This document shows, piece by piece, positions 15,495-63,290 of a DNA stretch of 64,000 bases. The first letter of the stretch is position 1. Each line of letters opens with the position of its first letter. The notes beneath the pieces were generated by a model. That model ran no database searches and had not been told where the DNA came from. It saw only the letters and a list, made by a program, of their open reading frames with translations. The position numbers and the translations under genes were made by a program. This DNA comes from an uncultured Porphyromonadaceae bacterium. GTDB lineage: Bacteria > Bacteroidota > Bacteroidia > Bacteroidales > UBA12481. The stretch covers positions 15,572-79,571 of the forward strand of contig CAZEKJ010000007.1 of the NCBI GenBank assembly GCA_964512915.1, in the 5' to 3' direction.

Positions 15495-15680
15495 CAGTTG
15501 CCGGTTGCCGGTTGCCAGTTGCCGGTTATTTCGCTCTGGTGTCATTCCGGTGAAAACCGGAATCTCCGAATTGGGTGTGAGTGTGAGTGTGGGTGTGAGT
15601 GTGATGGGGATTTCTGACTTCCGTCAGGATGACAGTTCGGGCGAAATAACCGGTAACCGGCAACCGGTAACCGGCAACTG
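15495..15680. repeat. Nested palindromic element: 40-nt heptamer arms (GTTGCCG family) enclosing two GTCAT...GAAA-type hairpins and a (GTGTGAG)n tract
   Basis: Arms at 15495-15534 and 15641-15680 are complementary with 3 mismatches. Inner hairpins at 15541-15564 and 15609-15633. Confidence 0.85.
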
Positions 15681-17115: not shown

Positions 17116-17149
17116 TTTGTCCTGGGGGACGAGTAAAGATAAGAAAAAA

Positions 17150-17280
17150 GGCAGAAGGCAGAAGGCAGAAATTAGTAAGAGGTTAAAAGACAGAAGTAAT
17201 AAGTTAGAGCAGAGGCACCCTTCTTTCTTTTTACCTATTTCTTCTTCCTAATTTCTGCCTTCTGCCTTCTGCCCTCTGCC
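17150..17280. repeat. GGCAGAA-armed palindromic element, subfamily B
   Basis: Arms GGCAGAAGGCAGAAGGCAGAAATTAGTAAGAGG and CTTCTTCCTAATTTCTGCCTTCTGCCTTCTGCCCTCTGCC. The right end is flush with the GH95 stop (17281-17283). Confidence 0.9.
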
Positions 17281-29563: not shown

Positions 29564-29615
29564 GTTACTGGTTACTGGTTGCTGGTTACTGGTTACCGGT
29601 TGCCGGTTGCCGGTT
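29564..29615. repeat. Heptamer array (GTTACTG/GTTGCTG/GTTACCG/GTTGCCG)x7.4
   Basis: Fills the spacer between the stop at 29621 and the ATG at 29563, with zero gap to the ATG. Confidence 0.9.
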
Positions 29616-29620
29616 AAAGG

Positions 29621-33160: not shown

Positions 33161-33297
33161 GGCAGAAGGCAGAAGGCAGAAGGCAGAAATTAGTAAGAAG
33201 AAAGAGGTTAGAAGAAAAAAGGATCTTCGGCCCTAACTTCTTTCTTATTTCTTCTTACTTTTTACTAATTTCTGCCTTCTGCCCTCTGCCCTCTGCC
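33161..33297. repeat. GGCAGAA-armed palindromic element, subfamily B
   Basis: Exactly fills the gap between the convergent stops TAG (33158-33160) and TTA (33298-33300). Arms of 4 heptamers plus ATTAGTAAGAAG-type extensions. Confidence 0.9.
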
Positions 33298-35672: not shown

Positions 35673-35866
35673 GTTGCTGGTTGCTGGTTACGGGTATCGG
35701 GTATCGGGTATCGGGAGTCGGTTAAGGGGCTCTCCGTGGAATAGGATTTCCGCTTTCGCAGAAGTGATACCATCGGAGAGCCCTGTTCCCAACAACTGAT
35801 ACCCGATACCCGATACCAAATCGTAAATTGTCAATCGTAATTCCTCCGTCGTCCGTCGTCGGTCGG
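35673..35866. repeat. Composite spacer: heptamer array, GGTATCG-armed palindrome with a 10-bp inner stem and a GAAA-type hairpin, then TCGTAA and CCGTCGT repeats
   Basis: Arms at 35692-35715 and 35796-35817. Inner stem GGGCTCTCCG/CGGAGAGCCC at 35727-35736 and 35774-35783. Hairpin unit at 35745-35768. Confidence 0.85.
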
Positions 35867-38109: not shown

Positions 38110-39768
38110 ATGAAAACACAAACTCCTTCCCGGATCTTTCCTCTTTCTTCTTTCTTCTTTCTTCTTTCTTTCGCCTTTCGCCTTTCGCCTTTCGCCTTAA
38201 CGGCCCAGGTTATCCCCGATGCGTTATACTCCCGGGCCGAGCGCACCAGCTTCATGGAAACCTCGCTCAACGCGGATGTGCTGAATTTTGTGGATGCACT
38301 GGAGAAGGCTTGTCCACTGGTTACAACAGAAACTATCTGCACCACAAAACTGGGCAACCCGGTGAAGCTGGTGATCATGGCAAATCCGAGGGTTTCAACT
38401 CCCGAGGAGGCCCGGAAATCCGGGAAGCCGGTAATTTATATTCAGGCTAATATTCATTCCGGGGAGGTTGAAGGCAAGGAAGCCTCGATGCAGCTGATGC
38501 GGGAGATCGCCTATGGTCCGCTGAAGAGGCTACTCGACAATCAGATTGTGATGTTTTGTCCGAATTACAATCCGGATGGCAATGATAAACTGGGTGAGAA
38601 CCGGCCATCGCAGGAAGGCAGTCCGAAACTGACCGGAGTTCGTCCGAATGGCGATGGGCTCGACCTTAACCGGGAAGGGATGAAGGCTGAAGCCACCGAA
38701 ATGAAAGGCCTCCTGAAGAATGTTTTTGTCCGATGGGATCCGGCGCTCTTCATGGATCTTCATACCGATAATGGTTCCTGGCACGGATATATCTGCAATG
38801 TGGCTCCATCCTTTCAAACCGCCGCAATGCCAGAGCCCACCAACTTTACCTATGTTCTGCTGAAAGATGCCATGCAGCGGGTTATGTCCCGCTCCGGGCT
38901 GCCGATATACTGGCACGGATATCTGAATATGAGGCCCAATACCCAGGCTACTTTCACAGCCTATGACCACCTGCCGCGGTATATTGCGAATTATGTCGGA
39001 CTGCGAAACCGGATGGGAATTCTGAGCGAAGCTTTTCCCCATGATCATTTCGAGAAAAGGGTTCTTTCAAATTATTACCTGATACTATCCGTTCTTGAAT
39101 ATACCGGCAGCCATGCCAAAGAGATTCAGGAGATGCTGGCCAAAGCCGATCAGGAAACCATTGACCTGGTAAAGGCTCAGGCCGGCATCCTTCAGCGCGG
39201 CGTAAAATATCAGCTTGCTGAGGAGCCGGAGCCGGTTACCATGCTGATAAGGCAAACCGAGCCTTATACCCCGGAAGGGAGCACCCGCCAGCGTTTCCGT
39301 CCAACCGGAAAGCTCGGCTATGTGGAAAACGTAAAACACTCCAACCATTTCGTGCCCACGAAACTCAGCACCGTGCCCCGCACCTACATTTTCCCTGCCG
39401 AACTGGCAAAGGTGGCTGAAAAGCTAAGAGAGCACGGGATCGTGGTTAAGACCCTGGATAAAAAGGCTAAAGTGACAGGTGAAGAATTTGTCATCAGCAA
39501 ATTCACACAAAACCAGCGCGAAGGGTACGGCGGTCACAAGGTCGTTACTCTCGAGGGAGAATTCAAGCCGGTGAAAACAACCATCCCGGCCGGGTCCTTC
39601 TATGTCGACCTCGCCCAGCCGCTGGCCTGGCTAGCTTTCTACCTTCTTGAACCACAATCGGATGACGGACTGGTGTATTGGAATTATTTCGATGAATTCC
39701 TGATGAAGAAGGGGGTTGAGAAGGGTGGGGTGGGGTATCCGGTGGTGAAGACAACGCAGGAGTTGTAG
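38110..39768 (+). CDS. M14 family zinc carboxypeptidase, secreted
   Basis: IQANIHSGEVEGKEA (HxxE), NYNPDGND, LDLNRE and DLHTDNGS motifs. The N-terminal hydrophobic core is encoded by tandem repeats. Confidence 0.8.
   Translation: MKTQTPSRIFPLSSFFFLLSFAFRLSPFALTAQVIPDALYSRAERTSFMETSLNADVLNFVDALEKACPLVTTETICTTKLGNPVKLVIMANPRVSTPEEARKSGKPVIYIQANIHSGEVEGKEASMQLMREIAYGPLKRLLDNQIVMFCPNYNPDGNDKLGENRPSQEGSPKLTGVRPNGDGLDLNREGMKAEATEMKGLLKNVFVRWDPALFMDLHTDNGSWHGYICNVAPSFQTAAMPEPTNFTYVLLKDAMQRVMSRSGLPIYWHGYLNMRPNTQATFTAYDHLPRYIANYVGLRNRMGILSEAFPHDHFEKRVLSNYYLILSVLEYTGSHAKEIQEMLAKADQETIDLVKAQAGILQRGVKYQLAEEPEPVTMLIRQTEPYTPEGSTRQRFRPTGKLGYVENVKHSNHFVPTKLSTVPRTYIFPAELAKVAEKLREHGIVVKTLDKKAKVTGEEFVISKFTQNQREGYGGHKVVTLEGEFKPVKTTIPAGSFYVDLAQPLAWLAFYLLEPQSDDGLVYWNYFDEFLMKKGVEKGGVGYPVVKTTQEL
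38136..38196 (+). repeat. (TTCTTTC)n(GCCTTTC)n pyrimidine heptamer tract inside the M14 gene 5' end
   Basis: The tract is built from the reverse-complemented units (GGCGAAA and GAAGAAA families) of the purine tract at 43352-43414. Encodes the hydrophobic core FPLSSFFFLLSFAFRLSPFA. Confidence 0.9.
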
Positions 39769-39830
39769 GGCATAAGGGCACAAGGGCACAGGGGCACAGG
39801 GGCACAGGGGCACAAGGGCACAAGGGCACA
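39768..39830 (+). repeat. (GGGCAYARG)n array, 8 G-tracts
   Basis: Starts at the stop TAG (39766-39768) of the M14 gene. Confidence 0.9.
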
Positions 39831-39884
39831 GTCTTACAGTCTCTCCGTCTCTCCGTCTCTCCGTCTCTCCGTCTCTCCGTCTTC
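39831..39884. repeat. (CCGTCTCT)n octamer array
   Basis: GTCTTACAGTCTCTCCGTCTCTCCGTCTCTCCGTCTCTCCGTCTCTCCGTCTTCC. Abuts the stop (39886-39888) of the minus-strand gene. Confidence 0.9.
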
Positions 39885-40407: not shown

Positions 40408-41703
40408 ATGCGCCTTCCAAGACCTCCGCGATTTATTTTCGTTCCGGTCATCATTATGGCCATGCTGCTGGTTTTACAATTGGCTGGACAGAACCCTGAA
40501 GATCACAGTCGGGATAGCCTAAAAAATTACGAAAAGACCCGCATCGAAGGACGTTCCTATTGGTCAGCTTTCGTCAATACCGGTCCCTATATCAGGAAAT
40601 ATATATCCAAACGGCCCGAAACCAGCCCGGAAATCTCGGAATATTTCAGAAAACAGGAAGAGATTGTTAGCCAGCTAAAGACTGAACATTCCGAGTCCGG
40701 AGAATTAAGCCTGGCCTTTATCGGGGACCTGATGTGGATATGGTATGGCTGGGAGCGATTCCTGTCGCCAGAAGTACTGGCTGAACTGGAACGACACGAC
40801 GTGGTTCTGGCAAACCTGGAAACACCTGTCGATCCGTCGCGGCGTGTTTCTTTCCCCGTTCCCGATCATCCGTCATACAATTCCCCGGTTGAGTTATTGA
40901 CCTCATTCTACAGTAAAACAAAAAGGGTAAATACCCTGACAGCGGTATCTTTTGCCAATAACCACACGTTTGACAGGGGAGAGGATGGCGCACGGGCAAC
41001 ACTCGGCGTACTTGATTCCCTCGGGATCGGACATTCGGGCGTTATCAGGCCGGAAATCCAGAAAAAACCGTACTATCTGATAGAAAAAAATGGCATCCGG
41101 ATCGGATTCTACGCGACTTGCTGGGGAACGAACAAAGGGGAAGTAGGGCACGAGGGCACAGGGGCACATGGGCATGAGGGATTGAGGGTGAATGTGATTC
41201 AGGGACTTGCTCCGTTAAATCAGGACAAAATTGACCTGTCGGAGGTGAAGTCGGTTCTTGGCCAAATGGCTCAGGATTCGCTGGATTTTAAGATAGTCAG
41301 TATCCATTGGGGGTTTGAATTTGAGTTCTATCCCGATCCGGTCATCATGGAGGTTGGACACCAGATCGTGGCTTCTGGCGCAGACCTGATTATCGGTTCT
41401 CATCCGCATGTTCAGCAGCCGAATGAAATCTGTTTTCTCAACGGGTATCGCGGGGATATCGCTCCATTCCTGATTTTAACGCCGGATTCGGTCCCTCGCA
41501 AGGCACTGATTGCCTATTCACTGGGCAACTTTTGTACACCGATGTACACTCGGACTCACCGAACAGGGCAGATTCAGTCACTACGCCTGTATCGACATCC
41601 TGAAACCGGCCGGATCGATTGGACGATACCGGAAGTCAAGAAGATATATAATGAAAATGGCCGGAAATGGCGTACATTTAGAAGGTTAACCCTGGCATCA
41701 TGA
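40408..41703 (+). CDS. CapA/PGA_cap family metallophosphatase-like protein
   Basis: LAFIGDLMW, FANNHTFDRGEDG, VSIHWGFEFEFYPD, GADLIIGSHPHVQQP and AYSLGNF motifs. Contains an in-frame degenerate G-rich repeat. Confidence 0.8.
   Translation: MRLPRPPRFIFVPVIIMAMLLVLQLAGQNPEDHSRDSLKNYEKTRIEGRSYWSAFVNTGPYIRKYISKRPETSPEISEYFRKQEEIVSQLKTEHSESGELSLAFIGDLMWIWYGWERFLSPEVLAELERHDVVLANLETPVDPSRRVSFPVPDHPSYNSPVELLTSFYSKTKRVNTLTAVSFANNHTFDRGEDGARATLGVLDSLGIGHSGVIRPEIQKKPYYLIEKNGIRIGFYATCWGTNKGEVGHEGTGAHGHEGLRVNVIQGLAPLNQDKIDLSEVKSVLGQMAQDSLDFKIVSIHWGFEFEFYPDPVIMEVGHQIVASGADLIIGSHPHVQQPNEICFLNGYRGDIAPFLILTPDSVPRKALIAYSLGNFCTPMYTRTHRTGQIQSLRLYRHPETGRIDWTIPEVKKIYNENGRKWRTFRRLTLAS
41137..41190 (+). repeat. 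Degenerate in-frame G-rich octamer array inside the CapA-like gene
   Basis: GGGGAAGTAGGGCACGAGGGCACAGGGGCACATGGGCATGAGGGATTGAGGGTG encodes GEVGHEGTGAHGHEGLRV. Confidence 0.75.
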
Positions 41704-42317
41704 ATAAAATAATTACGATCCTGATTACCTGTTTCATCTCCACAGGTTTAATGGGGCAGACTAAGTCAGCCAAAATCATTGAAGATTTGAAAACCGCCTA
41801 TAACGGCGAATCATCCGCTAGTGCAAAGTATGCAAAATATGCCGAAGTGGCTAAAAAAGAGGGATATCTCAATATTGCCCGGATGTTTGAAGCCACCTCG
41901 AAAGCTGAATCCTTTCATGCGGCAAACCATCTGGCGGTGATGAAGAAACTTGGCGGCAGTGTCAGCGGTCCGGTTTTGGAACCGGTCAAGCCGGGCACCA
42001 CGGCTGAAAATCTGGCCGATGGGATCAAAGGTGAGACCTGGGAATATGAAACGATGTATCCCCCGATGATTAAAGCAGCCGAAACAGCGGAACTTTATGA
42101 TGCGGTAACCACCTTCCGGTATGCCCGTGATACGGAGAAACGCCACAAGGTGATATACGAAAAGGCGCTCACAGCGCTAAAAGCGGGTCAGGAAAAGTCG
42201 GTTTCTGCAGTATGGTACGTATGCCCAACCTGCGGAAATACTTATAATTCTGCAGATCTGGCGGTTTCCTGCGAATTCTGTGGCACGCTAAGGCCTAGGT
42301 TCCTTATCTTTCAATAA
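41700..42317 (+). CDS. Rubrerythrin family protein with N-terminal signal-like segment
   Basis: Two ExxH diiron motifs (KAESFHAANH, DTEKRHKV) and a C-terminal CPTCG...CEFCG rubredoxin-like site. The start overlaps the capA-like stop (ATGA). Confidence 0.8.
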   Translation: MNKIITILITCFISTGLMGQTKSAKIIEDLKTAYNGESSASAKYAKYAEVAKKEGYLNIARMFEATSKAESFHAANHLAVMKKLGGSVSGPVLEPVKPGTTAENLADGIKGETWEYETMYPPMIKAAETAELYDAVTTFRYARDTEKRHKVIYEKALTALKAGQEKSVSAVWYVCPTCGNTYNSADLAVSCEFCGTLRPRFLIFQ

Positions 42318-43319
42318 TCCTTTACAGATTTCCCGGACCTCTTGTGCAAACAGGTCTGGTTCTTCCCAGTGCGGACTGTGCCCGCTGTTTTCGAACCAGG
42401 TAAATTCTTTTTTTGGTGCCTTGATGGTCTTAAACCAGGCTTCAACCACCGGGAATGAGGTATTGTAATCATACCGGCCTGCCATTAGGTATACCGGAAC
42501 TTCAAACTCTGTGGTACCGGTAAAATCCACCGAAATAAGTTCCGGATAAAGTTTTCTGCCATCGCGGAATACGGGCGTAATCCAATCGAGAGAATTATAA
42601 TCGGAGTACTCCATCAGGGCACGATTTTCATACAGGGTATCATGGTCGTTGATCCGGTATTTTACGAGCAGGATGCGGTGCCGGATCATATCATCCCATC
42701 CATTCTGATATCCTCCGGCGACAGAAAACGGGATGCTCGCTTCGGCCAGGATGGTTGCTGAATCGCCCGCTTCGCTTGCCAGTCTGATCAGCTGCTCCCT
42801 GGCAATCGAGTCTCCCATTTTCAGGTTCACCACCTGTCCCATACCGATATAACCGGCATAATCATCAGGAAAGAGCTTTATAAGATTTATCCCGATAACC
42901 GATCCCCAGCTGTGTCCTGCCAGGTAAATCTTTTCTACGCCGAATTTCGTTTTCAGAAACTGTGTGAGTGCATGCGCATCGTCCACATACAGTCCAATGG
43001 TCAGGGGAACCAGTGTATCTGATTCTGATTTTCCGCAGTTACGCTGATCCCAGGAAACCATGGTTACATCCTTGAACAGGCTGGCGTTGCGCGACCGGAT
43101 CATTGGGGTAGCCGGCCAGGCCGGACCCCCGTGAATAAACAGGAGAACCGGATTGCGGTCTGATTCTCCATGAATCTCAATGTACTGGTTAACCCCATTG
43201 AGATTAAGCATCAGGCTGGTGTCAGCGGGCAGGCCGCTATCCGGCGACTTTTTGCAGGATACATTTATTCCCGGCGCAACAGCAATGATTGCCAGAGCCA
43301 GGATCAGAAATTTTTTCAT
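42288..43319 (-). CDS. Alpha/beta hydrolase (S33 prolyl aminopeptidase-like), secreted
   Basis: FIHGGPAWP oxyanion region and GHSWGS nucleophile elbow. Signal peptide. Confidence 0.75.
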   Translation of the reverse strand: MKKFLILALAIIAVAPGINVSCKKSPDSGLPADTSLMLNLNGVNQYIEIHGESDRNPVLLFIHGGPAWPATPMIRSRNASLFKDVTMVSWDQRNCGKSESDTLVPLTIGLYVDDAHALTQFLKTKFGVEKIYLAGHSWGSVIGINLIKLFPDDYAGYIGMGQVVNLKMGDSIAREQLIRLASEAGDSATILAEASIPFSVAGGYQNGWDDMIRHRILLVKYRINDHDTLYENRALMEYSDYNSLDWITPVFRDGRKLYPELISVDFTGTTEFEVPVYLMAGRYDYNTSFPVVEAWFKTIKAPKKEFTWFENSGHSPHWEEPDLFAQEVREICKGLLKDKEPRP

Positions 43320-43351
43320 TGGAATCGTCTTGTTCTTAAAGATAGGGGATC

Positions 43352-43450
43352 AAGGCGAAAGGAAAAAGGCGAAAGGCGAAAGAAAGAGAAAAGAAGAAAG
43401 AAGAAAGATTAAAGATTAAAGAAAGAGTTAAGATTGAAAAGAAATTAAAG
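43352..43450. repeat. Purine-rich repeat tract (GGCGAAA)n(GAAGAAA)n(GATTAAA)n
   Basis: Read directly from the sequence. Lies in the divergent region between the starts at 43319 and 43523. Confidence 0.85.
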
Positions 43451-43476
43451 ATGATATTCACCCAACCACTATCTTT

Positions 43477-43522
43477 AACCGGCAACCGGCAACCGGTAAC
43501 CAGTAACCAGTAACCAGCAACC
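43477..43522 (+). repeat. (AACCGGC/AACCGGT/AACCAGT/AACCAGC)x6.5 heptamer array flush with an ATG
   Basis: Ends ...AACCAGCAACC, directly followed by the ATG at 43523. Confidence 0.9.
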
Positions 43523-44806
43523 ATGTCCAACCTCACAGCCAAGATCGGCTCCTTCCGCTGGCGAATTCTCGCCCTTCTGTTCATGGCCACCACCATCAAC
43601 TATATCGACCGCAGTATTCTCGGCGTTTTAGGACCAACGCTGCGCGACAAGGTTTTCGGCTGGACCGTTCAGGATTATGCCAACATCACAATCGCTTTTC
43701 AGCTGGCTTATGCGATTGGCTTGCTGAGCATGGGCGGGATTATTGACCGGCTCGGCACAAAAAAAGGGTATACACTTTCCATAGCGATATGGAGTGCTTT
43801 TGGCATGATGACGGCCCTGGTAACACGAAGCATGGGCTGGATCGGATTTGCGTTTGTCCGGTTTGGACTCGGACTGGGTGAGTCGGGTAACTTTCCGTCG
43901 GCCGTTAAAACGGTTGCAGAGTGGTTTCCCAGGAAGGAGCGCGCATTTGCCACCGGGTTGTTCAATGCCGGAACGAATGTCGGGGCCATCATAGCCCCGC
44001 TCTTTGTGCCGCTTGTGGTTAAAAATGATGGCACCAACTGGCAGATTGCCTTTCTGATGTCAGGGATTTTCAGCGTGACCTGGATCATCCTGTGGAACCG
44101 CACCTACCAGCGGCCGGAAATGCATCCGAAACTATCCGAGGCAGAGCTTGAATATATCCTGAGCGACCAGGTGGTTGAGACCACTGAAAAGGTTCCCTGG
44201 AAAAATCTTTTCCCCATAAAGGAAACATGGGCTTTTGCAGCCGCAAAGGTCCCGGATGCCGTCTGGTGGTTCTACCTGTTCTGGGGCGGTTTTTTTCTCA
44301 ATGCCCGGTTTGGACTGGAGTTGAGAGGCCTGGCCTTACCTTTGATCATTATTTATGTTATCGCTGATATCGGAAGTATTTTCGGAGGATACCTTTCCGG
44401 CTTTTTCATTAACAAGGGGTGGTCAGTAAACAAAGCCAGGAAGGTCACCCTGCTGATTTTCGGCACCCTGGTTCTGCCTGTAACACTCGCCCCGCTGGTT
44501 TCGAACCAGTGGGTGGCTGTACTGCTGATCGCGCTGGCCGCTGCAGCCCACCAGGCCTGGTCGGCTAATGCCTTCACCCTCGTCTCCGATGTGTTCCCGA
44601 AAAAAGCAGTTGCTTCGGTGGTTGGAATTGGCGGAATGGTAGGGGCTGTTTCCGGGATCGTGGCAAACCTTGCCCTGGGCAAAGTGCTCACCGATGCGGG
44701 CCCGCATGGCTATGTCTATGCTTTCCTGGTTGCTGGAGCCATGTACCTGATCATGCTCAGCATCATTCACCTGATCATGCCGAAAATGACTCCGGTGAAG
44801 ATTTGA
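43523..44806 (+). CDS. MFS transporter, hexuronate (ExuT)-like
   Basis: N-terminal WRILALLFMATTINYIDRSILGVLGP is typical of the ACS/ExuT subfamily. 427 aa. Confidence 0.75.
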   Translation: MSNLTAKIGSFRWRILALLFMATTINYIDRSILGVLGPTLRDKVFGWTVQDYANITIAFQLAYAIGLLSMGGIIDRLGTKKGYTLSIAIWSAFGMMTALVTRSMGWIGFAFVRFGLGLGESGNFPSAVKTVAEWFPRKERAFATGLFNAGTNVGAIIAPLFVPLVVKNDGTNWQIAFLMSGIFSVTWIILWNRTYQRPEMHPKLSEAELEYILSDQVVETTEKVPWKNLFPIKETWAFAAAKVPDAVWWFYLFWGGFFLNARFGLELRGLALPLIIIYVIADIGSIFGGYLSGFFINKGWSVNKARKVTLLIFGTLVLPVTLAPLVSNQWVAVLLIALAAAAHQAWSANAFTLVSDVFPKKAVASVVGIGGMVGAVSGIVANLALGKVLTDAGPHGYVYAFLVAGAMYLIMLSIIHLIMPKMTPVKI

Positions 44807-44828: not shown

Positions 44829-45776
44829 ATGAGAACTGTTCTTACATCTCTATTCTGCCTGATCCTGCTCGGATTGACTGGCTGCAGCGGGTCATTTCCA
44901 ACCGACAAGCCCATAGTTGAAGGTTTCATCGATGTAACCGGCGGTAAGGTTTATTACAGGATCGTGGGAGCCGACAAGCCTGGAATCCCCCTTTTGGCTC
45001 TTCACGGCGGCCCCGGAGCCGCACATGATTATCTTGAGCCCCTGGAAGCCCTGGCCGATGAGCGTCCGGTGATCTTTTACGATCAGTTAGGCTGCGGCAG
45101 CTCCGACCGGCCGGGTGACACGACCCTCTGGACCCTCGAACGATTTGTGGATGAGCTGGCAACAATCAGGAAAGAGCTGGGATTAAAAAAGGTGCACATC
45201 ATGGGACAGTCATGGGGCAGCATGCTGGCCGCCGAATATATGGTTACAAAAAAACCCGCCGGAGTTGTGAGCCTGATCTTTTCCGGCCCCTGTCTGAGTG
45301 CGTCACGCTGGATTACCGACCAGCACGCCTGGATCAGCCAGATGCCCGATTCGATGCAGAACGCCATTCGGATTGGCGAGGAAACCGGAAATTTTGCGAC
45401 CCCCGAATACCAGAGTGCGCTCAACTACTTCTATTCCATTCATGTCTGCCGGATGAACCCATGGCCCGATTGCCTGAACCGTTCCCTGGCCAAGATGGGT
45501 GTGGATGTTTATGAGTACATGTGGGGACCCAGCGAATTCACCGCCACCGGAACCCTTAAGAATTTTGACCGCACCGGTGAAATGACCGGAATAAAAGTTC
45601 CAACCCTGTTTACCTGCGGGGAGTTCGACGAGGCGACCCCGGCAACTACCGCCTGGTACCAAAGCCTGCTCCCAGGATCAGAACTAAAAGTATTTCAGGA
45701 CGCCTCGCACGAGCACCATCTGGAAAAAGAATCCGAATATATCGCCGCAGTCAGGGAGTTTATCGGGAAACAATAA
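44829..45776 (+). CDS. Proline iminopeptidase-family hydrolase (S33), lipoprotein
   Basis: LHGGPGAAHDYL and GQSWGSMLA motifs. Signal LILLGLTGCSG. Confidence 0.8.
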   Translation: MRTVLTSLFCLILLGLTGCSGSFPTDKPIVEGFIDVTGGKVYYRIVGADKPGIPLLALHGGPGAAHDYLEPLEALADERPVIFYDQLGCGSSDRPGDTTLWTLERFVDELATIRKELGLKKVHIMGQSWGSMLAAEYMVTKKPAGVVSLIFSGPCLSASRWITDQHAWISQMPDSMQNAIRIGEETGNFATPEYQSALNYFYSIHVCRMNPWPDCLNRSLAKMGVDVYEYMWGPSEFTATGTLKNFDRTGEMTGIKVPTLFTCGEFDEATPATTAWYQSLLPGSELKVFQDASHEHHLEKESEYIAAVREFIGKQ

Positions 45777-47175
45777 TTCCGTATGGCGGAAGATGGATCC
45801 GGATCGATTCCAATCTGCTGTCCGCGGGCTCCGCAAAAAGAACCTCGCCCAGGTAACCATTAACTGAATAGTGCGGCTTCTCGAGTTCCTGCAAAGTTCC
45901 CGTCAGGTTGATGGCAACCCAGATCCAGTTTTTAAAATCGCCCAGAGTCCTGACAAAAGTAATGACCCCAGGATTATCATTCGGAAGTATCCGGACCTCA
46001 CCGTGTGCCAGGGCCGGGTATTGTTTCCGCAAGGAAATCAGCGTTTTATAAAAATTCCAGAGGGAATTCGGATCCTTGATTTGCTCTTCCACGCTAATCC
46101 CGTCGTTTGCCTTGCCATATCGCTTGTCCCACCAGATTCCTGAATTTTTGTACCAGTGGGCCATACCCGGACCTTCTGTGTTCTTGTACCATTCGAAGGC
46201 TTCCCGCCTTGAAATCTGGTCTCCGTCGGTAGGCACCTCATGCTTGATTCCTTTCATCCCGATTTCCTGACCGTAATAGATCAGGGGCGTTCCTTTCAGC
46301 AGCAGGTTAAAGGCCGCACCCACCTTTTCCCTGGCCAGATCCCCGTTCATCAGGGAGGCAAAACGATCCACATCGTGATTCTCAATAAAAATCAGCTGGT
46401 CCTTGCCGGGGGGAGTCATCAGATACGTGGTATCCAGCTTGTTCTGGATCTGGTTCTTGTCGAGGGAATTGATGGCCATGTACAAGGGAAAGGCAAAAAC
46501 AAGATCGAGGTCCGCCTTCTTGAAAATCTCCGTCCCATACTCCATCCAGTTGGCCTGCTCCCCGATAATCCGGATATTTGGATTTATTGCCCGGAGTTCA
46601 TCAAAAAGCGGCTTCCAGAAACCAGCATAAAGATTGGTTAACCTGCCCGTAAAGTCGAGGTCATCCATGATGTGATCGATGCGGAACCCATCCACTCCGT
46701 CGTCGAACTTCCCGTCCTTGTTGGGATCCAGAAAGTAGTGGTAGAGATCATAGAAATATTTTTTTACCTCCGGATGATTCAGGTTGGCCATATTGAGACC
46801 CCGGGAGGTTCCGTCATAGGATATCACCTTTCCCCAGGGTGTTCCAGCCAGCTGATAATCCGGCTTGCTGGCATACCAATCGGAGCCCTCGGTTACATAC
46901 TGGGTCTCCATATCGAGGTAAAACCTCATTCCCCGCTTATGGATCTCCCTGAGCAGTTCCGTGAATTCCTTCATGGTGCCGTATTCCGGATCAATCTTCC
47001 AATAATCCTTGGCGAAATAATTGTGATAGGATTCAGATTCCATCAGCGGCAGCGTGAGAATCGAGGTAACCCCCAGATCCTGCAGGTAATCGAGCTTCTT
47101 TTTCAGTCCGTTAAGATCCCCGATCCGGTCGCCGTTGCTGTCATAAAAGCTTCTCGGCAGCACGTAATAAACCAC
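45760..47175 (-). other. GH13 alpha-amylase-family catalytic module
   Basis: GH13 conserved regions: YYVLPRSFYDSNGDRIGDLNG, DGFRIDHIMD, IIGEQANW and FIENHDVDRF. Confidence 0.85.
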
Positions 47176-50100
47176 CTCAGGAGCCGGTTTCTTTGTCTCC
47201 GGCTCAAACTCAATCATCTGGGTGACATACTTTTCCTTCGATTCCGGGAACCGAAACTCCCGCTCCTCAATGATCCGGTCGCGGATCACCCGGATCTTTC
47301 CCCCGCTGCCGCTCAATCCCTCCACTTTAACCCGATATGTTGCCCCGGCAAGTTCATCGGAAATAATCTTGAAACCGGTGGATGAGTCGCCGGGTGCCGG
47401 ATGATGAACAACAGGCAGTACCCCGATACCACCGCTGTGATTGACGATCACCCGGATCTTATCATAGAGGGGAGCCATAGGAGTAATGCTTTGCCGGAGT
47501 TGTGAGAAATCGCCCGGGATTTTTGCTACAAGTCTTCCGATATCGATGGTACCCCCCTCAATCCGTGTACCGGGAAGCAGCTCAATATCCATTCCTATAT
47601 ATATTCGCGTGGTATCGGCAGCCTGATCTCCGGTTTTACTGCGCACGAAATCCAGCTGAGTCTGGCCGGTTCGCCTCACCTGCGTCATGGAAAAGGAGTG
47701 AACCCCGATCCGGATATTCTCAACGGTCACCGAATCCCAATCCATGGGGAACTCCGGATTCAGGTATACATAATTTTTAATCGCATCGGGTTTGAATCCC
47801 AGCATCCCGTCGATGGCCGGCTGGATCACCATGGTTTCGCTCCAGCACTGATGGCGGCATACCCCGAAATATTTGTATTGGGTGCCATGGAGCACCTCCT
47901 CAATATAGCCCAGCGACCAGTTTTTGTAAATCAGCAGGTTGCTCATCAGTTTAGAGTACCCCTGAGCGGAATTGCCGGCCGCAAAATCTCCGAGGGAAGC
48001 CCAGCCGGTAAAGAGCGGCCACACACTTCCTGTATGGTAACCACCCGGCGCGAAGAATTTCGCCTTTTCACTCACGATCCGGGTTCCCCAGTCGGTGGTG
48101 AAATTGGGTGACGCGATCCTGTCAACCACGGCCCTTTTCTGTTCCTGGCTCCTGATCTGTCCCCAGTGCAGGGGGATGGCCGTCATCACCGAGGGCTCGG
48201 TCATGTAGGTGCCATCCTTGAAAATCCCGTGGTTGAAGAATTTCGTTTCCGGGTTCCAGAATCCGGTGTTCAGTTTATCCAGAACCACTTTCGCCTCATC
48301 GGTATATTTTGTTTGCAGTTCTTTAAGCCCGATATTTTCAGCCATATACGCTGCCTGCCCCAGTGCTTCGGCCCAACAGGAGACCATATACTGCGTGGTA
48401 TGGGTGACATAAAGATCACCGCCCTCTTCCCAGCCGTGTCCCTGCTGGGTGTTCTCGATCAGGTGGTCGCGGTCGGTATCGGTGGAATAACAGAAATCGA
48501 TGGCCTTTTTAATGAATGGCCACTCCTTGCGGATGAAAGCGGTGTCGCCGGAGTGATGTAAGTATTTGCCAGCCAAAACTATATAAAGAGGTGTGGCATC
48601 CGCCGCATCAAAATGTGCGATGCCTGAGGTGGTCAGTTCATGGTAGATTTTTCCTGAAACGTCCTGATACCTGGAAAAAAGCTCCAGGATGGTTTTTACA
48701 CGTTCAAAATCGCCATAATCGAGAACGGCAAACCCGCTCCAGACGGCATCCCGACCGAAATACCACGCGTAGCCTGGACGGCCGTTGACTTTTTGGGCTC
48801 CGTTCCAGCCGTAATCCGTGGTAGCGTATCCCGCAACCAGTGAGCGGCCCACACCGGGGGTATTCACGATAAACCGGTCGCTGCCCACCAGTGCCCACTT
48901 ATAGCCGGTATTGAAATCGGCATCCGGACCGGTGATGGTCAGTTTTCCATTGAAGAGTGATTTTGCATAATCCACAGCTGCAGCATAAACGGCATCCGGC
49001 TTCATCGCCGCCCTGCGGTAGGCTGAAACAGCCTCGGTGACACCGGTAGCCGAGGTCCCCAGCACCACATCGGCCATACTTTCCGGTTCCATGACCGTCT
49101 CCAAGGTTAGTGCCACCCTGAGTCCCTGATCCGGAGATCCGGTTTTAGCCGTAACAGGCACATTCATCCCGATGGTCATGGCGAAATCGCCCGATTTATC
49201 CCTGACAACCCAGGCGTTCAGCACCTCATTCCAGGAGTAGCGGATTTCGCCGGTAACCTTTTCCGAATAGGGCCACATAAACCGGAGGTTGCTTTTCAAG
49301 CTGATTACCAGATCGATCGGCTGGTCCCCGGAATAAGCATAGTGGATCACCGCATTCCCGTCGGTCGGGTGTACGGTGATGATCTCCTTCAGGAGGCTTT
49401 CCCCGAATGCGTAGATCCGGGTAAAAGATTCCGGTCTAACCTCGATGGCCGGTTTCAATGTATTCAGCGCGATTTCCTTATCGGGATTATGCATTCTGAT
49501 TTTAACCTGATAATCGCGCAGAGCCATAACCGGATGCGCCCACACCTCATCGATCCCGCCGGGCTCCTTGCCCAGAATCACCATTCTCTCGCCGGCAATA
49601 TCCCACATGTTCTTAGGCTGGGCCGTGGCCTTGAGGGTGATCTCACTATCATGCTGCACCCAGGGCTCAGGCTTCCCTAACCACAACTTTATACCTGCTT
49701 CTTCTTCCTGATTTCTGCCCTCTGCCCTCTGCCCTCTGCCTTCCTCTTCAGCTACGACAGGCGGTCCATAATCCCAATTCCTCACCTGGCTCACCATCGT
49801 CTGGCCGTCCAGGTAATCCAGCACATTCCGGGTAAATTTTTCCAGATGGGAGCTGTTATAATTGGGCATGTCATAATCCAGATAGGCCCCGATGGCCAAA
49901 ATTTTTCCTTTTCCCAGGGTGTATTCCGTGATCAGTTTATTCTGATCATAGAGGAATATGTATGCCCAGTCAACCGCTACAACCTTTCCGTCGGGAACAG
50001 CCTCTCCGAACCATCCTACTCTCCGTACATTGATGTCCTGTTTTGGCGCATAGACATAGGCCCCGCCAAGCATCCCGTCGAAAATCGGGTGACTGCGGAA

Positions 50101-51630
50101 GGCGTGCAGTCCCAGTTTCCGGCCGTTTCCTTCATCCACCAGTTTCGTATAGGAAACCGTTGGGGCCACCTTCTCCACCCCCAGGTATGGGAGCAATCTG
50201 ACAGCGTCCATGGTCAGCAGCAGGCTGCCGCCCTGCTCAACATGCCTGCGAAACTTCCCGGCCCACTCCGCTGCCTTTTTATCCAGGTCAACGGTTGAAT
50301 CCGGCTCGTGATACCAGAGCACTTTGCCATAGGGGGTTGGGGTCCCCGCTTTCGCGGGGATGACAAGTGCATCTGCACCATCCGGGTTCGCCGGGATGAC
50401 AAGAGCCTGATCTTGAATATCTTGTTTCTTTCTTTCGCCCCCGGGTCGAGCCCGGGGCAGGCTTTTCGCCTTTCGCCTTTCGCCTTGTTTCTCCAGCGCA
50501 ACCCCCTGCTCCCAATTTACGACATACTGCCACCAATTATTCAGATGCCCGTCCTCCGGATTGATCCCTTCGAAATGCGGAATATGGCTGAACCACCAGC
50601 TCATGTACCCTTCGTGTGAACATTGCCACTCGGAACAGTCCACCGTTCGGGTCATATCGGGCTTAATATCAGGATAATAGTTCCATCCATCGGCACATGT
50701 GGTAACCGGCGTTTTGTTCACCCAGTCATAATCAAACATGCCGTTGGGGGGAAAATGGATATTCCCGATGTTCGCCAGTCCGGGGTGTGTTTTGTTGAAG
50801 CGGGTATATTTCTCCCAGTTGTTGGGGACGGGCTCGTTATAATCCCAGCGGCCGTAAAGGTGCCACATCACGGATTCGAAGCGGTGACCGTAGCTTTCGA
50901 GTGCCAGCGACATTTTCCGTTCGTAGTTCAGTCCCATTACCACCAGAAGTTCCTTGTTCGAAGTGGTGGTTGTGGGTTCGGAGTTGAGCCAGAAGCCGGT
51001 GGCGCCGCAATAGTTGGATTCCCACATGCCTCCGTAAGGAAACGACCAGACCCACACCTCATTGATCTGATTTTTATCGCGCATTTTGTCGAAGCCGTAG
51101 TGCTCCACAAACTCCTTGTAATCGAAATGCGTTCCGGTCTCCTTGAGGGTTTTCCAGTCGGGCTCCATCAGCAGGTTGACCATCTCATCGGTGCCGAGCA
51201 TCACATTATTATCGTTCCTCCGGGAGAAGAACTTCCCGTCATCGATGATCTTTACCACCTCATACTGTACCACCCCATGGCTGATCTTTTCCAGGGCGGC
51301 CTCGTACTCCCGGTTCAGCACCATCGGATCGTTCCACATGAAGGTGCGGCCCGGGGTTTTCACCACCTCATGGAGCCGCTTGCCGCCATATTGAGGCAGC
51401 GCCGGATCCTGGATGACGACCGCGACTTTCACCTTGATGGGCTTGGCGGGGGGGAGCTGGGCGAAGGCAGAAGGCAGAGGGCAGAAGGCAGAAATCAGTA
51501 AGAAGAAGGAAGGAAGAAGGAACAGGTTTCTGCCAGCCTGTAGCTTCAGAGCCGGAGCGGAGCTGGGACATAAAACCCCGGGCTGAACCCCGGGGTTACT
51601 GATGTCTGTCGAAGACGATTTTCTAATCAT
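45760..51630 (-). CDS. 1956-codon composite ORF: unknown module A, unknown module B, glycogen-debranching (GDE_C/amylo-alpha-1,6-glucosidase-like) module, GH13 alpha-amylase-family module
   Basis: Uninterrupted frame. Module junctions consist of repeat modules otherwise seen in intergenic DNA. Whether it is one polypeptide is uncertain (see findings). Confidence 0.55.
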   Translation of the reverse strand: MIRKSSSTDISNPGVQPGVLCPSSAPALKLQAGRNLFLLPSFFLLISAFCPLPSAFAQLPPAKPIKVKVAVVIQDPALPQYGGKRLHEVVKTPGRTFMWNDPMVLNREYEAALEKISHGVVQYEVVKIIDDGKFFSRRNDNNVMLGTDEMVNLLMEPDWKTLKETGTHFDYKEFVEHYGFDKMRDKNQINEVWVWSFPYGGMWESNYCGATGFWLNSEPTTTTSNKELLVVMGLNYERKMSLALESYGHRFESVMWHLYGRWDYNEPVPNNWEKYTRFNKTHPGLANIGNIHFPPNGMFDYDWVNKTPVTTCADGWNYYPDIKPDMTRTVDCSEWQCSHEGYMSWWFSHIPHFEGINPEDGHLNNWWQYVVNWEQGVALEKQGERRKAKSLPRARPGGERKKQDIQDQALVIPANPDGADALVIPAKAGTPTPYGKVLWYHEPDSTVDLDKKAAEWAGKFRRHVEQGGSLLLTMDAVRLLPYLGVEKVAPTVSYTKLVDEGNGRKLGLHAFRSHPIFDGMLGGAYVYAPKQDINVRRVGWFGEAVPDGKVVAVDWAYIFLYDQNKLITEYTLGKGKILAIGAYLDYDMPNYNSSHLEKFTRNVLDYLDGQTMVSQVRNWDYGPPVVAEEEGRGQRAEGRNQEEEAGIKLWLGKPEPWVQHDSEITLKATAQPKNMWDIAGERMVILGKEPGGIDEVWAHPVMALRDYQVKIRMHNPDKEIALNTLKPAIEVRPESFTRIYAFGESLLKEIITVHPTDGNAVIHYAYSGDQPIDLVISLKSNLRFMWPYSEKVTGEIRYSWNEVLNAWVVRDKSGDFAMTIGMNVPVTAKTGSPDQGLRVALTLETVMEPESMADVVLGTSATGVTEAVSAYRRAAMKPDAVYAAAVDYAKSLFNGKLTITGPDADFNTGYKWALVGSDRFIVNTPGVGRSLVAGYATTDYGWNGAQKVNGRPGYAWYFGRDAVWSGFAVLDYGDFERVKTILELFSRYQDVSGKIYHELTTSGIAHFDAADATPLYIVLAGKYLHHSGDTAFIRKEWPFIKKAIDFCYSTDTDRDHLIENTQQGHGWEEGGDLYVTHTTQYMVSCWAEALGQAAYMAENIGLKELQTKYTDEAKVVLDKLNTGFWNPETKFFNHGIFKDGTYMTEPSVMTAIPLHWGQIRSQEQKRAVVDRIASPNFTTDWGTRIVSEKAKFFAPGGYHTGSVWPLFTGWASLGDFAAGNSAQGYSKLMSNLLIYKNWSLGYIEEVLHGTQYKYFGVCRHQCWSETMVIQPAIDGMLGFKPDAIKNYVYLNPEFPMDWDSVTVENIRIGVHSFSMTQVRRTGQTQLDFVRSKTGDQAADTTRIYIGMDIELLPGTRIEGGTIDIGRLVAKIPGDFSQLRQSITPMAPLYDKIRVIVNHSGGIGVLPVVHHPAPGDSSTGFKIISDELAGATYRVKVEGLSGSGGKIRVIRDRIIEEREFRFPESKEKYVTQMIEFEPETKKPAPEVVYYVLPRSFYDSNGDRIGDLNGLKKKLDYLQDLGVTSILTLPLMESESYHNYFAKDYWKIDPEYGTMKEFTELLREIHKRGMRFYLDMETQYVTEGSDWYASKPDYQLAGTPWGKVISYDGTSRGLNMANLNHPEVKKYFYDLYHYFLDPNKDGKFDDGVDGFRIDHIMDDLDFTGRLTNLYAGFWKPLFDELRAINPNIRIIGEQANWMEYGTEIFKKADLDLVFAFPLYMAINSLDKNQIQNKLDTTYLMTPPGKDQLIFIENHDVDRFASLMNGDLAREKVGAAFNLLLKGTPLIYYGQEIGMKGIKHEVPTDGDQISRREAFEWYKNTEGPGMAHWYKNSGIWWDKRYGKANDGISVEEQIKDPNSLWNFYKTLISLRKQYPALAHGEVRILPNDNPGVITFVRTLGDFKNWIWVAINLTGTLQELEKPHYSVNGYLGEVLFAEPADSRLESIRIHLPPYGIIVSR
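47176..49692 (-). other. Glycogen debranching enzyme-like (GDE_C) module
   Basis: YFGRDAVWSGFA, ADATPLYIVLAGKY, GHGWEEGG and GGYHTGSVWPLFTGWAS motifs are typical of amylo-alpha-1,6-glucosidase-type (alpha/alpha)6 enzymes. Confidence 0.7.
49698..49740. repeat. Single arm of a subfamily-B GGCAGAA element inside the composite ORF
   Basis: CTTCTTCTTCCTGATTTCTGCCCTCTGCCCTCTGCCCTCTGCC is followed by TTC where intact copies have TTA. No partner arm is present. Confidence 0.85.
49741..50340 (-). other. Module B of the composite ORF (unknown function, about 200 aa)
   Basis: PYGKVLWYHEPDS...NWDYGPPVVAEEE. A GTG lies at its start. Ends exactly where intact repeat copies carry a stop codon. Confidence 0.45.
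50341..50484. repeat. Composite of intergenic-type modules inside the composite ORF
   Basis: On the minus strand: (GGCGAAA)x3, GC hairpin CCCCGGGCTCGACCCGGGG, GAAAGAAAG, then two GTCATCCC...GAAA/GAAC hairpin units (50379-50400 and 50341-50364). Confidence 0.85.
50485..51459 (-). other. Module A of the composite ORF (unknown function, about 325 aa after the repeat-encoded N terminus)
   Basis: Compositionally normal coding sequence, PAKPIKVKVAVVIQDP...NNWWQYVVNWEQGVALEKQ. No family recognised. Confidence 0.5.
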
Positions 51631-56624: not shown

Positions 56625-56785
56625 CCAGTTACCGGTTGCCAGTTGCCGGTTGCCGGTTGGGCCAGAACTGTCATTCCGGCGAAAGCCGGAATCCCCTGAC
56701 AAGTGCTCCGGGGCCTGGGATCCTGACTTTCGTCAGGATGACAGTTCCGGCCCAACTGGTAACTGGTAACCGGCAACTGGCAACT
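56625..56785. repeat. Nested palindromic element, same architecture as 15495-15680
   Basis: Heptamer arms at 56625-56663 and 56749-56785. 10-bp stem GAACTGTCAT/ATGACAGTTC. Hairpins at 56670-56693 (GAAA loop) and 56719-56742. The left arm is flush with the stop at 56622-56624; the right arm ends 11 nt from the stop at 56797-56799. Confidence 0.9.
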
Positions 56786-56796
56786 TCTCCCAAGAG

Positions 56797-58170: not shown

Positions 58171-58262
58171 AGTAGTTGGTTGCTGGTTACTGGTTGCTGG
58201 TTCTGGTTGCCGGTTGCCGGTTACCGGTTACCGGTTACTGGTCACTGGTCACTGGTCACTGG
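58171..58262. repeat. 12-unit heptamer array drifting from GTTGCTG to GTCACTG
   Basis: Fills the spacer between the stop at 58256-58258 (inside the last unit) and the ATG at 58170. Confidence 0.9.
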
Positions 58263-59128
58263 TTTTTCCATTGGTCGTTTAGGGTTAGGAATGCGCGCGG
58301 CAGGTCTTCGTTTTTCCAGGAGCCCTCAATGGAGATGCCTCCGTGATAGCGTATTTTCTTCAAGGCCTCAAAGTAAGGACGAAAGTCATCTCCATCCATT
58401 CCGGGCGCTGTGCGGGTTCTGAGTTCGGCAATATGGCAATGAACCAGAAGATCACCGGCATCCAAAATGGAGGAGGGCCCTTCATTTTCCCGCATCATGT
58501 GAAAAATGTCTGCTAAAACTCTGATATTCTTATCGTTAACTTCTCTTGCGATCGAAGTGGCCTCGGTTACGGTATTGATAAAATTGCATTCCGATTTTTG
58601 CAGGCTTTCTATGGCGATGGTCACATGGTATTTCCGCGCAACCGGACCCATTCTTTTCAGCAGGCTTACAAATTGGTTCCGGGCTTCTGACCGGTCGAAC
58701 TCTTCGGGGATCGAACGGGCTCCCGAACTGCCAAATACGATGATCCGGATCCCGGCCTGTTCCGCCCTCCGGAAGGCCACCTCTGCATAGCTCAGAACCG
58801 TATCGTGCCTGGCTTCCGGTCCGGTTACCTTAAGTGTTCCCGGAAGGAATCCGTTGCAGGCAATTACCGGCAGCTTGCAGGTATCAAATTCGGCCATTTT
58901 CTTCTGGAACTCTTCATCAGGTTTTCCGGGCATCAGGTCGCGTCCCACACTCCCTTCCAGGTACCGGAAGCCCGCTTGTTTCAGTATAGATGCGTTTGAC
59001 AGGGAGGTGCAAACGCCGAACTGTGGACCCTGCTCTCGTGCCGATGCTCCGATCCTTGTGGCCGGTTTGCATGCGGGTAACCCGATAAGAACGGCAGCTA
59101 TCAGGATAAGAAGAGGCCTGTTTTTCAT
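58256..59128 (-). CDS. Sugar phosphate isomerase/epimerase (xylose isomerase-like TIM barrel), lipoprotein
   Basis: 290 aa. AP_endonuc_2-like pattern (IRIIVFGS..., ESLQKSECNFIN, HCHIAE). The stop lies in the heptamer array. Confidence 0.7.
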   Translation of the reverse strand: MKNRPLLILIAAVLIGLPACKPATRIGASAREQGPQFGVCTSLSNASILKQAGFRYLEGSVGRDLMPGKPDEEFQKKMAEFDTCKLPVIACNGFLPGTLKVTGPEARHDTVLSYAEVAFRRAEQAGIRIIVFGSSGARSIPEEFDRSEARNQFVSLLKRMGPVARKYHVTIAIESLQKSECNFINTVTEATSIAREVNDKNIRVLADIFHMMRENEGPSSILDAGDLLVHCHIAELRTRTAPGMDGDDFRPYFEALKKIRYHGGISIEGSWKNEDLPRAFLTLNDQWKNQ

Positions 59129-60550: not shown

Positions 60551-60587
60551 GACTGGTCACTGGTCACTGGTCACTAGTCACTACTCC
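60551..60587. repeat. (GTCACTG-family) heptamer array overlapping a gene 3' end
   Basis: GACTGGTCACTGGTCACTGGTCACTAGTCACTACTCC. The TAG stop (60574-60576) and the last 3 codons of the SGNH hydrolase lie in it. Confidence 0.85.
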
Positions 60588-63150: not shown

Positions 63151-63290
63151 GGCAGAAGGCAGAAGGCAAAAATTAGACTTAAGTCCTTAATCCTTAAGTA
63201 AAAAGTTAAGTATGAAGGAGGGCACAAAGCCAACCTTTTTACTTTTCTATCTTATTTCTTTTTACTAATTTCTGCCTTCTGCCTTCTGCC
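63151..63290. repeat. GGCAGAA-armed palindromic element, subfamily A
   Basis: Exactly fills the gap between the convergent stops TAA (63148-63150) and CTA (63291-63293). Confidence 0.9.

Follow-up and report, generated by a model that had tools for sequence, protein, structure and literature searches.

Orientation-coupled AACCRGY heptamer arrays beside the start and stop codons of an uncultured Bacteroidia genome

Tandem repeats with a 7 nt unit have been described beside genes in several groups of bacteria. In Beggiatoaceae, cyanobacteria and five Bacteroidetes, direct repeats of TAACTGA lie mostly in the forward orientation and a few nucleotides upstream of start codons; they have stops on the forward strand opposite an open reverse strand, their spacers include neither a Shine-Dalgarno (SD) sequence nor predicted structure, 7 nt indels distinguish strains, and a role in translation was proposed (MacGregor 2015, PMC4679880). 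In the cyanobacterial short tandemly repeated repetitive (STRR) sequences, 7 bp tandem repeats can form hairpins between hupS and hupL, with a suggested role in stabilising the transcript or in coupling translation (PMC2670836), and a preprint on Nostoc reports that heptamer repeats near start codons affect reporter expression, its data suggesting that they act via an unidentified partner (bioRxiv 10.1101/2022.06.06.494920). Among the long simple-sequence repeats of prokaryotes, heptamers make up the most abundant class, and slippage of the polymerase was put forward as their cause (Mrazek 2007, as cited in PMC4679880). Here, we examine arrays of a further unit, AACCRGY, in a 64,000 nt stretch (the window) of an uncultured Porphyromonadaceae bacterium of the order Bacteroidales (GenBank assembly GCA_964512915.1, contig CAZEKJ010000007.1, positions 15,572–79,571).

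An earlier reading of the window, made from its letters only (the sequence-only reading), had singled out four arrays at the starts of four genes, all in the same orientation. These four arrays are present with the letters as transcribed, but the family is not limited to them; it comprises nine arrays in the window, and two more of these are forward and upstream of starts. Two-unit matches to AACCRGY with at most one mismatch number 36 in the 64 kb against 0.29 expected from dinucleotide-preserving shuffles, and the arrays have a period of 7 and 2.4–12.7 copies (Tandem Repeats Finder) and are intergenic by the open reading frame (ORF) map. Six are forward with respect to the gene that follows, at distances of 0, 0, 0, 4, 34 and 47 nt upstream of the start on the coding strand, and three are reverse and lie behind stops. 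No reverse array is found near a start in the window, against the six forward arrays within 50 nt upstream. In two cases the stop codon of the upstream gene falls within the array (Table 1).

The four leaders read ...AACCGGCAACCGGCAACCGGTAACCAGTAACCAGTAACCAGCAACC directly before the ATG at 43523 (a hexuronate-type major facilitator superfamily (MFS) transporter), ...AACCAGCAACCAGTAACCAGTAAC directly before the ATG at 29563 (a GH109-like oxidoreductase), ...CCCGTAACCAGCAACCAGCAAC directly before the ATG at 35672 (a rhodanese) and ...AACCAGTAACCAGCAACCAACTACT before the ATG at 58170 (a Gfo/Idh/MocA oxidoreductase). The zero gaps claimed for the first three are correct; that at 58170, given as 8 nt, is 4 nt with a degenerate AACCAAC included in the array and 11 nt without it. 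The MFS leader consists of two AACCGGC units, one AACCGGT, two AACCAGT, one AACCAGC and a final AACC before the ATG, with AACCGGY as the distal type and AACCAGY in the three units nearest the ATG. The products match the Pfam domains MFS_1, Glyco_hydro_109_C with GFO_IDH_MocA, Rhodanese, and GFO_IDH_MocA with its C-terminal domains, respectively, and begin with MSNLTAKIGSFRW... (MFS), a twin-arginine translocation (TAT) signal, MKSNRRNFLK (GH109-like), a signal peptide (rhodanese) and a second TAT signal, MTERRDFIKK (Gfo/Idh/MocA). On these domains and N-termini, the four genes are real and their start codons credible. The window (about 51 % G+C) holds genes typical of polysaccharide-using Bacteroidia, and in protein searches the neighbours were uncultured Bacteroidales, Prolixibacteraceae or Draconibacterium-like lineages.

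Orientation and distance relative to start codons had been set beforehand as the test of whether these arrays are more than incidental. A pattern of 3.5 AACCRGY units was scanned on both strands of a species-representative genome collection and a metagenome collection, and samples of 143 genome and 139 metagenome arrays (282) were drawn from the matches listed, of which there were at least as many. AACCRGY-type arrays are common across public genomes and metagenomes. Among the matches listed they belong mainly to Bacteroidota, with others in Acidobacteriota, Chloroflexota, Verrucomicrobiota, Desulfobacterota-like genomes and cyanobacteria; the Streptomyces matches listed are coding. The distance to a start was taken from the 3′ end of the array to the next ATG opening an ORF of at least 100 aa, and the distance to a stop from the 5′ end of the array back to a stop that closes an open frame of 100 codons or more, a crude rule by which single distances may be off and which was identical for both orientations. 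An earlier ORF-based classification was dropped, as spurious ORFs swallowed stop-free (AACCRGC)n arrays and produced 37 'inside' cases, several of them only 33–80 nt from the apparent ORF start.

Forward arrays predominate beside starts at every distance considered. With an ATG within 2 nt, there were 5 forward and 1 reverse arrays in the genome sample and 10 and 0 in the metagenome sample (combined 15 vs 1, p=5e-4); within 20 nt, the counts were 18 vs 5 and 21 vs 3 (39 vs 8, p=5.5e-6), and within 45 nt, 34 vs 14 and 36 vs 6 (70 vs 20, p=1e-7). Behind stops the order is inverted: where a stop lay no more than 6 nt upstream, reverse arrays outnumbered forward ones by 31 to 12 and by 24 to 10 (55 vs 22, p=2e-4). 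When an array lay in a spacer flanked by two same-strand genes, it was closer to the start in 22 of 33 forward cases and closer to the stop in 16 of 18 reverse cases (Fisher p=1.5e-4), a split replicated in the metagenome sample (p=0.03). Many of the start-flush cases precede convincing N-termini, among them TAT and lipoprotein signals and D-aminoacyl-tRNA deacylase-like and GHMP-kinase-like starts. The expected bias is thus present in both of these independent samples, and the lack of bias that was to refute the idea did not occur.

In Flavobacterium johnsoniae, initiation proceeds without SD pairing and is favoured by low structure and by A at −3, −6, −12 and −13, and the regions around starts are poor in AUG (PMC6847099). 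The leaders had been described as A/C-rich, G-poor and unstructured and as fitting initiation in Bacteroidota. When composition and accessibility were compared across 30 window genes with ATG starts, the fit was borne out, in that the forward strand has the composition of initiation regions in this genome: A (0.37–0.43) and G (0.10–0.17) in the array-led genes match the local norm (0.38 and 0.13), and C replaces T. The leaders are indeed A/C-rich, but their low G is only the local norm, and their low T (7–10 %) is the stronger departure. The reverse strand, G/T-rich and A-poor, is the opposite of the local norm. Forward arrays contain neither ATG nor TTG, and A is found at −3 in all four window leaders and at −6 in three of the four. 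As for structure, predicted pairing is confined to the distal AACCGGY units, via their self-complementary CCGG, and does not reach the AACCAGY units beside the ATG. From −20 to +10, the four array-led genes have a high predicted accessibility (unpaired probability 0.76 vs 0.63, Mann-Whitney p=0.026).

The stop codons in the arrays were considered separately, as they had been proposed to block read-through from upstream in all three frames. Units ending in T give TAA or TGA every 7 nt, rotating through the frames, and the reverse strand is stop-free. All three frames are covered in the MFS and Gfo/Idh/MocA leaders, but only two in the GH109-like leader and one in that of the rhodanese. Since it is the stop-free reverse orientation that predominates directly past stops, and only two of the four leaders cover three frames, backup termination is not what sets the orientation.

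Stretches that are unpaired and have more C than G are properties of Rho utilisation (rut) sites. With a C:G ratio of 2–3:1 and a mostly unpaired stretch of 45–90 nt, the forward arrays might be Rho-loading sites that make downstream expression dependent on ribosome occupancy; as the resemblance is one of composition only and the distal CGG units pair, this is extremely improbable.

We favour an account, to which we give about an even chance, in which a fast-evolving repeat, filtered by orientation, provides genes with a leader or intercistronic spacer that is permissive, unstructured and SD-independent. The AACCRGY family would have colonised the short non-coding spacers of this Bacteroidia genome. 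Beside starts, only the A/C-rich strand would have been retained, resembling a normal SD-independent initiation region, and the array would form the whole 5′ leader or intercistronic spacer, in two cases together with the stop of the upstream gene, and would work as a ribosome landing region of variable length. The complementary G/U-rich orientation would have been retained directly past stops, often as the 5′ arm of a hairpin with a forward 3′ arm. We infer that the arrays are transcribed, that translation starts on them without other signals, and that selection and not mutational bias sets their orientation.

The sequence-only reading had advised a comparison of unit number among strains or reads; among relatives, unit number varies. 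Related sequences (L115–L125) include those of a groundwater sister species (L115 and L121) with about 85–90 % nucleotide identity to the window. At the MFS leader, the window has 6.6 units, L120 has 10 and L121–L123 have 4 (identical in three samples), and the GH109-like leader has 7.4 units in the window, 6.5 in L118 and 3.4, with an inserted palindromic element, in L119. In the scaffold L117, from a metagenome-assembled genome, a run of N (about 3430–3525) lies exactly at the position of this array. The rhodanese leader has 2.4 units in the window and 3.4 in L121–L123, with AAT at the junction before the ATG. These three starts keep arrays of 4–10, 3.4–7.4 and 2.4–3.4 units, respectively, in sister lineages with 95–97 % protein identity. 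The Gfo/Idh/MocA leader of 12.7 units corresponds to about 3 degenerate units at the ATG in L115. More distant orthologues have no array: the MFS orthologues in L124 and L125 (87 % protein identity) have an 18 nt spacer and the Gfo/Idh/MocA orthologue in L116 (81 %) one of 15 nt. Hence, over short distances the arrays are kept at the same starts while unit number changes, and further out they are absent; they are young or turn over fast. A polarity of distal AACCGGY and proximal AACCAGY units is common to three window arrays and their orthologues.

This turnover also bears on the main rival, namely that slippage-prone repeats arose neutrally in short spacers of about 15–20 nt and were purged wherever the G/U-rich strand would have harmed initiation. 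The flush position would then simply follow from spacers that were short to begin with, like the array-free ones at the same junctions in relatives; copy number and unit composition change fast among close relatives, the phase of the junction with the ATG is not fixed, heptamers are the commonest long simple-sequence repeats of prokaryotes, with slippage proposed (Mrazek 2007, via PMC4679880), and unrelated 7–8 nt arrays of several families occupy at least 20 % of the intergenic bases of the window under a strict definition. However, arrays have been kept at the same three starts across lineages with about 87 % nucleotide identity while the flanking spacer was remodelled, their polarity is consistent, and position and orientation are strongly coupled at stops too, where harm from the other orientation is not evident. 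That the arrays are merely tolerated we regard as rather doubtful.

Several results weigh against the proposal that the arrays serve as leaders. Their predicted folds are neither more nor less stable than those of shuffled sequence (z −1.2 to +0.8), and the accessibility difference comes from only four genes. The cross-genome gene starts depend on the crude ORF rule given above. A fixed junction phase supplying A at −3, though it holds for four of four window leaders, was rejected: among 27 start-adjacent arrays (ATG within about 12 nt) many phases occur with none preferred, and the 11 with A at −3 are what base composition predicts. The arrays are also dispensable, since the orthologues at 81–87 % protein identity do without them. 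A candidate for a −7-like promoter box of the Bacteroidota, CTATCTTTAA (43466–43475), upstream of the MFS array, is kept in L121–L123 but not conserved in L120 and remained a guess, as does the notion that the array would be the whole 5′ untranslated region of the MFS gene were CTATCTTTAA a −7 box; a second copy lies on the other strand near 43337–43346. Finally, a functional array and one tolerated only in this orientation are not separated by sequence data alone.

Some arrays are paired. In the window, reverse and forward arms of the AACCRGY family at 15497/15647 and 56625/56753 form hairpins, and the Gfo/Idh/MocA gene is preceded by a forward array and followed, just past its stop, by a reverse one. 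Across genomes, about one-quarter of the stop-flush reverse arrays are in the layout stop, (RCYGGTT)n, loop, (AACCRGY)n, with the forward partner within 220 nt. Nine cases of the paired layout are from distant phyla, including L040, in which the reverse arm starts 2 nt past the stop and 16 nt separate the forward arm from the ATG. A second family also forms array-armed hairpins. The (GGCAGAA)n...(TTCTGCC)n hairpins begin on the base right after the stop, take up the whole spacer and are extremely stable (fold −63 to −80 kcal/mol, z −9 to −12), and at the orthologous position of the convergent spacer 63151–63290, sister-species sequence L115 (5562–5683) has the same architecture built from GGCTCAA/TTGWGCC on both arms.

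Forward arrays might be the 3′ arms of such hairpins, acting as terminators, transcript stabilisers or coupling devices, with solo arrays as remnants or pairing with reverse arrays elsewhere on the same transcript. A reverse arm followed by a forward arm would by itself put forward arrays beside starts and reverse arrays beside stops, the architecture is kept when the units of both arms change between species, and the STRR hairpins between hupS and hupL were proposed to stabilise transcripts or couple translation (PMC2670836). Yet the three longest start-flush arrays in the window fill the whole spacer with no reverse partner and have 6.6–12.7 units against the 4–5 of paired arms, and most stop-flush reverse arrays in the cross-genome samples have no forward partner within 220 nt. 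We hold this explanation to be quite unlikely.

The cores of the two paired AACCRGY loci hold a palindromic doublet (…TGTCATYCC..CGAAAG..GGRATGACA…, in inverted pairs and resembling doublets of repetitive extragenic palindromic (REP) sequences that form hairpins (REPINs)). Related doublets lie in L119 (about 330–470) and L121 (about 3410–3500), upstream of the GH109-like and rhodanese genes, where the window has none. In the L115 counterpart of the convergent spacer at 56625–56796, one arm has 4 units and not 5, and the palindromic core is inverted.

The recurrence of one heptamer in a strict orientation at unrelated genes and in many phyla could also indicate multivalent sites for a sequence-specific RNA- or single-stranded-DNA-binding protein and hence a post-transcriptional regulon, as was hypothesised for the TAACTGA repeats (PMC4679880) and as the unidentified partner suggested by the Nostoc reporter data (bioRxiv 10.1101/2022.06.06.494920) would allow. 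The unit is loose, with R, Y and GACC variants, and its number is unconstrained; each of the several other array families in the genome would need a binder of its own, and the four array-led genes share no obvious function. No candidate binding protein came to light, though no search was aimed at one. Such a regulon is very unlikely.

Table 1. Repeat arrays and related features of the window (positions in the 64,000 nt stretch)
Feature	Position	Strand	Context
(AACCRGY) x6.6 array	43477–43522	+	fills space up to ATG 43523 of hexuronate-type MFS transporter gene
(AACCRGY) x7.4 array	29564–29616	−	fills intercistronic spacer; flush to ATG 29563 of GH109-like TAT oxidoreductase gene; begins 5 nt past stop of esterase/carbonic-anhydrase gene
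(AACCAGC) x2.4 array	35673–35689	−	flush with ATG 35672 of rhodanese gene; downstream of hairpin with (CGGGTAT)n/(GATACCC)n arms
12.7-unit array (GACCAGT x3, AACCGGY x5, AACCAGY x4)	58171–58264	−	ends 4 nt before ATG 58170; fills entire spacer from TIM-barrel gene to Gfo/Idh/MocA gene; upstream TGA (58256–58258) inside
(GACYAGT) x4.4 forward array	60552–60585	−	47 nt upstream of ATG 60504; contains TAG stop (60574–60576) of GDSL lipase gene
(AACYGGC) x4.4 forward array	15497–15527	−	3′ arm of intergenic hairpin; 34 nt upstream of ATG 15462
Palindromic doublet	15530–15646		between inverted heptamer arms
Reverse AACCRGY-family array (relative to minus-strand genes)	15647–15678	+	5′ arm of hairpin; 6 nt past stop of gene 15685–17115
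Convergent-gene spacer	56625–56796	.	reverse-type AACCRGY-family array flush behind each stop (56625–56659, 56753–56785), bracketing core
Palindromic doublet	56660–56752		core between the two reverse-type arrays
(GGCAGAA)n...(TTCTGCC)n hairpins	9430–9598, 17146–17280, 33161–33297, 63151–63290		stop-to-stop or stop-to-start spacers; at 33161–33297, (GGCAGAA)4...(TTCTGCC)4 fills a stop-to-stop spacer
(GGGCACAR)n octamer arrays	11084–11125, 12629–12712, 13930–13995, 39767–39830, 41145–41174	+	all G-rich on the + strand; last one inside a gene
(GTCTCTYA)n arrays	11131–11222, 39839–39882		each follows a (GGGCACAR)n array
(AAGGCGA)n(AAGAAAG)n array	43352–43423		purine-rich; upstream of MFS leader
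(TCTTTCT)5(CTTTCGC)4 array	38134–38196		63 nt (21 codons) inside M14 peptidase gene (start 38110)
Heptamer arrays inside ORF 45760–51630	49713–49740, 50461–50481, 51462–51489	−	1956 aa glycoside-hydrolase-like ORF
(ATTRKCAC)n octamer array	7958–8016		abuts 5′ end of minus-strand ORF 5731–7965
23 nt tandem repeats, 3–4 copies	1931–2029, 3034–3108		two neighbouring spacers by gene ends

Arrays of 7–8 nt units from several families make up much of the intergenic DNA of the window, and further families include (GGGCACAR)n, (GTCTCTYA)n, (AAGGCGA)n/(CTTTCGC)n and others. Two of the (GGGCACAR)n arrays, each with a (GTCTCTYA)n array behind it, start at the stop codon of a gene on the plus strand; the G3-N5 spacing of (GGGCACAR)n fits a G-quadruplex motif, and L124 has a related octamer. 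The purine-rich array upstream of the MFS leader is also in L121 (8756–8830), L122 (6875–6950) and L123 (6416–6500), and two samples from one sister species have unequal unit numbers in it (4 vs 3 and 2 vs 4) but the same AACCRGY array. A minus-strand ORF of 343 aa (42288–43319) separates the rubrerythrin and MFS genes in the window; these two genes are in the same orientation in L120, L121 and L124, with no gene called between them.

Arrays are also found within genes. Heptamers encode the hydrophobic core, IFPLSSFFFLLSFAFRLSPFAL, of the signal peptide of the M14 peptidase, and the DNA of this core is identical in the sister species (L121 from 5801, L123 from 3468), with a shorter (CTTTCGC) version in L124 (from 4157) and L125. 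The three arrays in the glycoside-hydrolase-like ORF encode peptides of low complexity, namely …EEEGRGQRAEGRNQEEE…, …KQGERRKAK… and the signal-peptide-like …SAFCPLPSAFA…, and the L115 alignment of this ORF breaks at the first internal array. On the coding strand, every (ATTRKCAC)n unit contains ATG or GTG and the GTG listed as the start of ORF 5731–7965 falls within the array, which leaves the true start uncertain. The 23 nt repeats (approximately GCCWRTTAGCCGAGCGCAGCGAG) do not belong to the heptamer family.

Taken together, heptamer and octamer arrays might amount to a modular code for the non-coding DNA of this lineage and perhaps of many SD-poor bacteria. In such a code AACCRGY would serve as leaders, its complement and GGCAGAA/TTCTGCC would supply stop-flush hairpin arms, pyrimidine-rich arrays would even encode signal-peptide cores, and stop-array-loop-array-start could be a general device for translational coupling or termination. 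The concerted replacement of GGCAGAA by GGCTCAA in both arms between sister species would then imply active making or homogenising of arrays, or strong structural selection, and not simple slippage. We consider so general a scheme unlikely.

How ribosomes choose starts in bacteria that ignore the SD sequence is only partly understood, and array leaders, which are strict in orientation, nearly free of structure and differ mainly in unit number, offer a natural series of variants of a minimal SD-independent leader. A little-studied class of repeats is extended by a further sequence family, present widely in Bacteroidota and in several more phyla, together with a clear rule linking orientation to position, forward before starts and reverse past stops. 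There is also a practical side: such arrays break short-read assemblies, several metagenome contigs ending inside them, and mislead ORF callers.

Among known elements, REP sequences and REPINs do not describe the solo arrays, which are direct repeats with no palindrome, the palindromic doublets being confined to the two hairpin cores. Clustered regularly interspaced short palindromic repeat (CRISPR) arrays have repeats of 23–55 nt with unique spacers, and here 7 nt units run head to tail with no spacers. Rfam 15 at the gathering threshold gave no match anywhere in the window. Like other long simple-sequence repeats, the arrays consist of slippage-prone tandem heptamers whose copy number varies between close relatives, but unlike the repeats of contingency loci, which switch frame or promoter spacing, they lie outside ORFs, and steps of 7 nt would probably alter only leader length; phase variation was not adopted as an explanation, no on/off logic being evident. 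Compared with the initiation regions of Bacteroidia (Baez 2019, PMC6847099), the AACCRGY leaders are likewise A-rich, G-poor, AUG-free and predicted to be accessible, but normal leaders are A/T-rich and non-repetitive, whereas the arrays have C in place of T, and A at −12 and −13 is not systematic.

The closest relatives are the two heptamer systems described at the outset. STRR units include CCCCAGT, TTGGTCA and CAACAGT, which resemble GACCAGT and AACCAGT. As in STRR, AACCRGY units are 7 bp, intergenic and in tandem, and paired arrays in the window form hairpins, though solo start-flush arrays do not; the host is Bacteroidales-like and not a (heterocystous) cyanobacterium, the units differ, and the orientation-locked position flush with starts is a trait of the AACCRGY arrays that does not define STRR. 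With the TAACTGA repeats they share tandem 7 nt intergenic units, spacers with neither an SD sequence nor predicted structure, a patchy distribution across phyla, change in steps of 7 nt, forward arrays close to starts (0–4 nt from four ATGs in the window) and a forward strand with stops opposite an open reverse strand. They differ in the unit, which has GACCAGT variants and whose closest variant seen, TAACTGG (56753–56785), is one base off; in also occurring in reverse, flush past stops and often as a hairpin arm; in sharing the genome with several 7–8 nt families that have positions of their own; and in their host, a Bacteroidia lineage whose ribosomes are presumed, by analogy with the class, to ignore the SD sequence. 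In the literature searched we found neither the AACCRGY family, nor its breadth across phyla, nor figures for the rule that forward arrays precede starts and reverse arrays follow stops. The idea of start-proximal heptamers with a role in translation is, however, not new (MacGregor 2015, PMC4679880), and the AACCRGY arrays are elements of the same kind as the TAACTGA repeats and STRR, built from a different unit.

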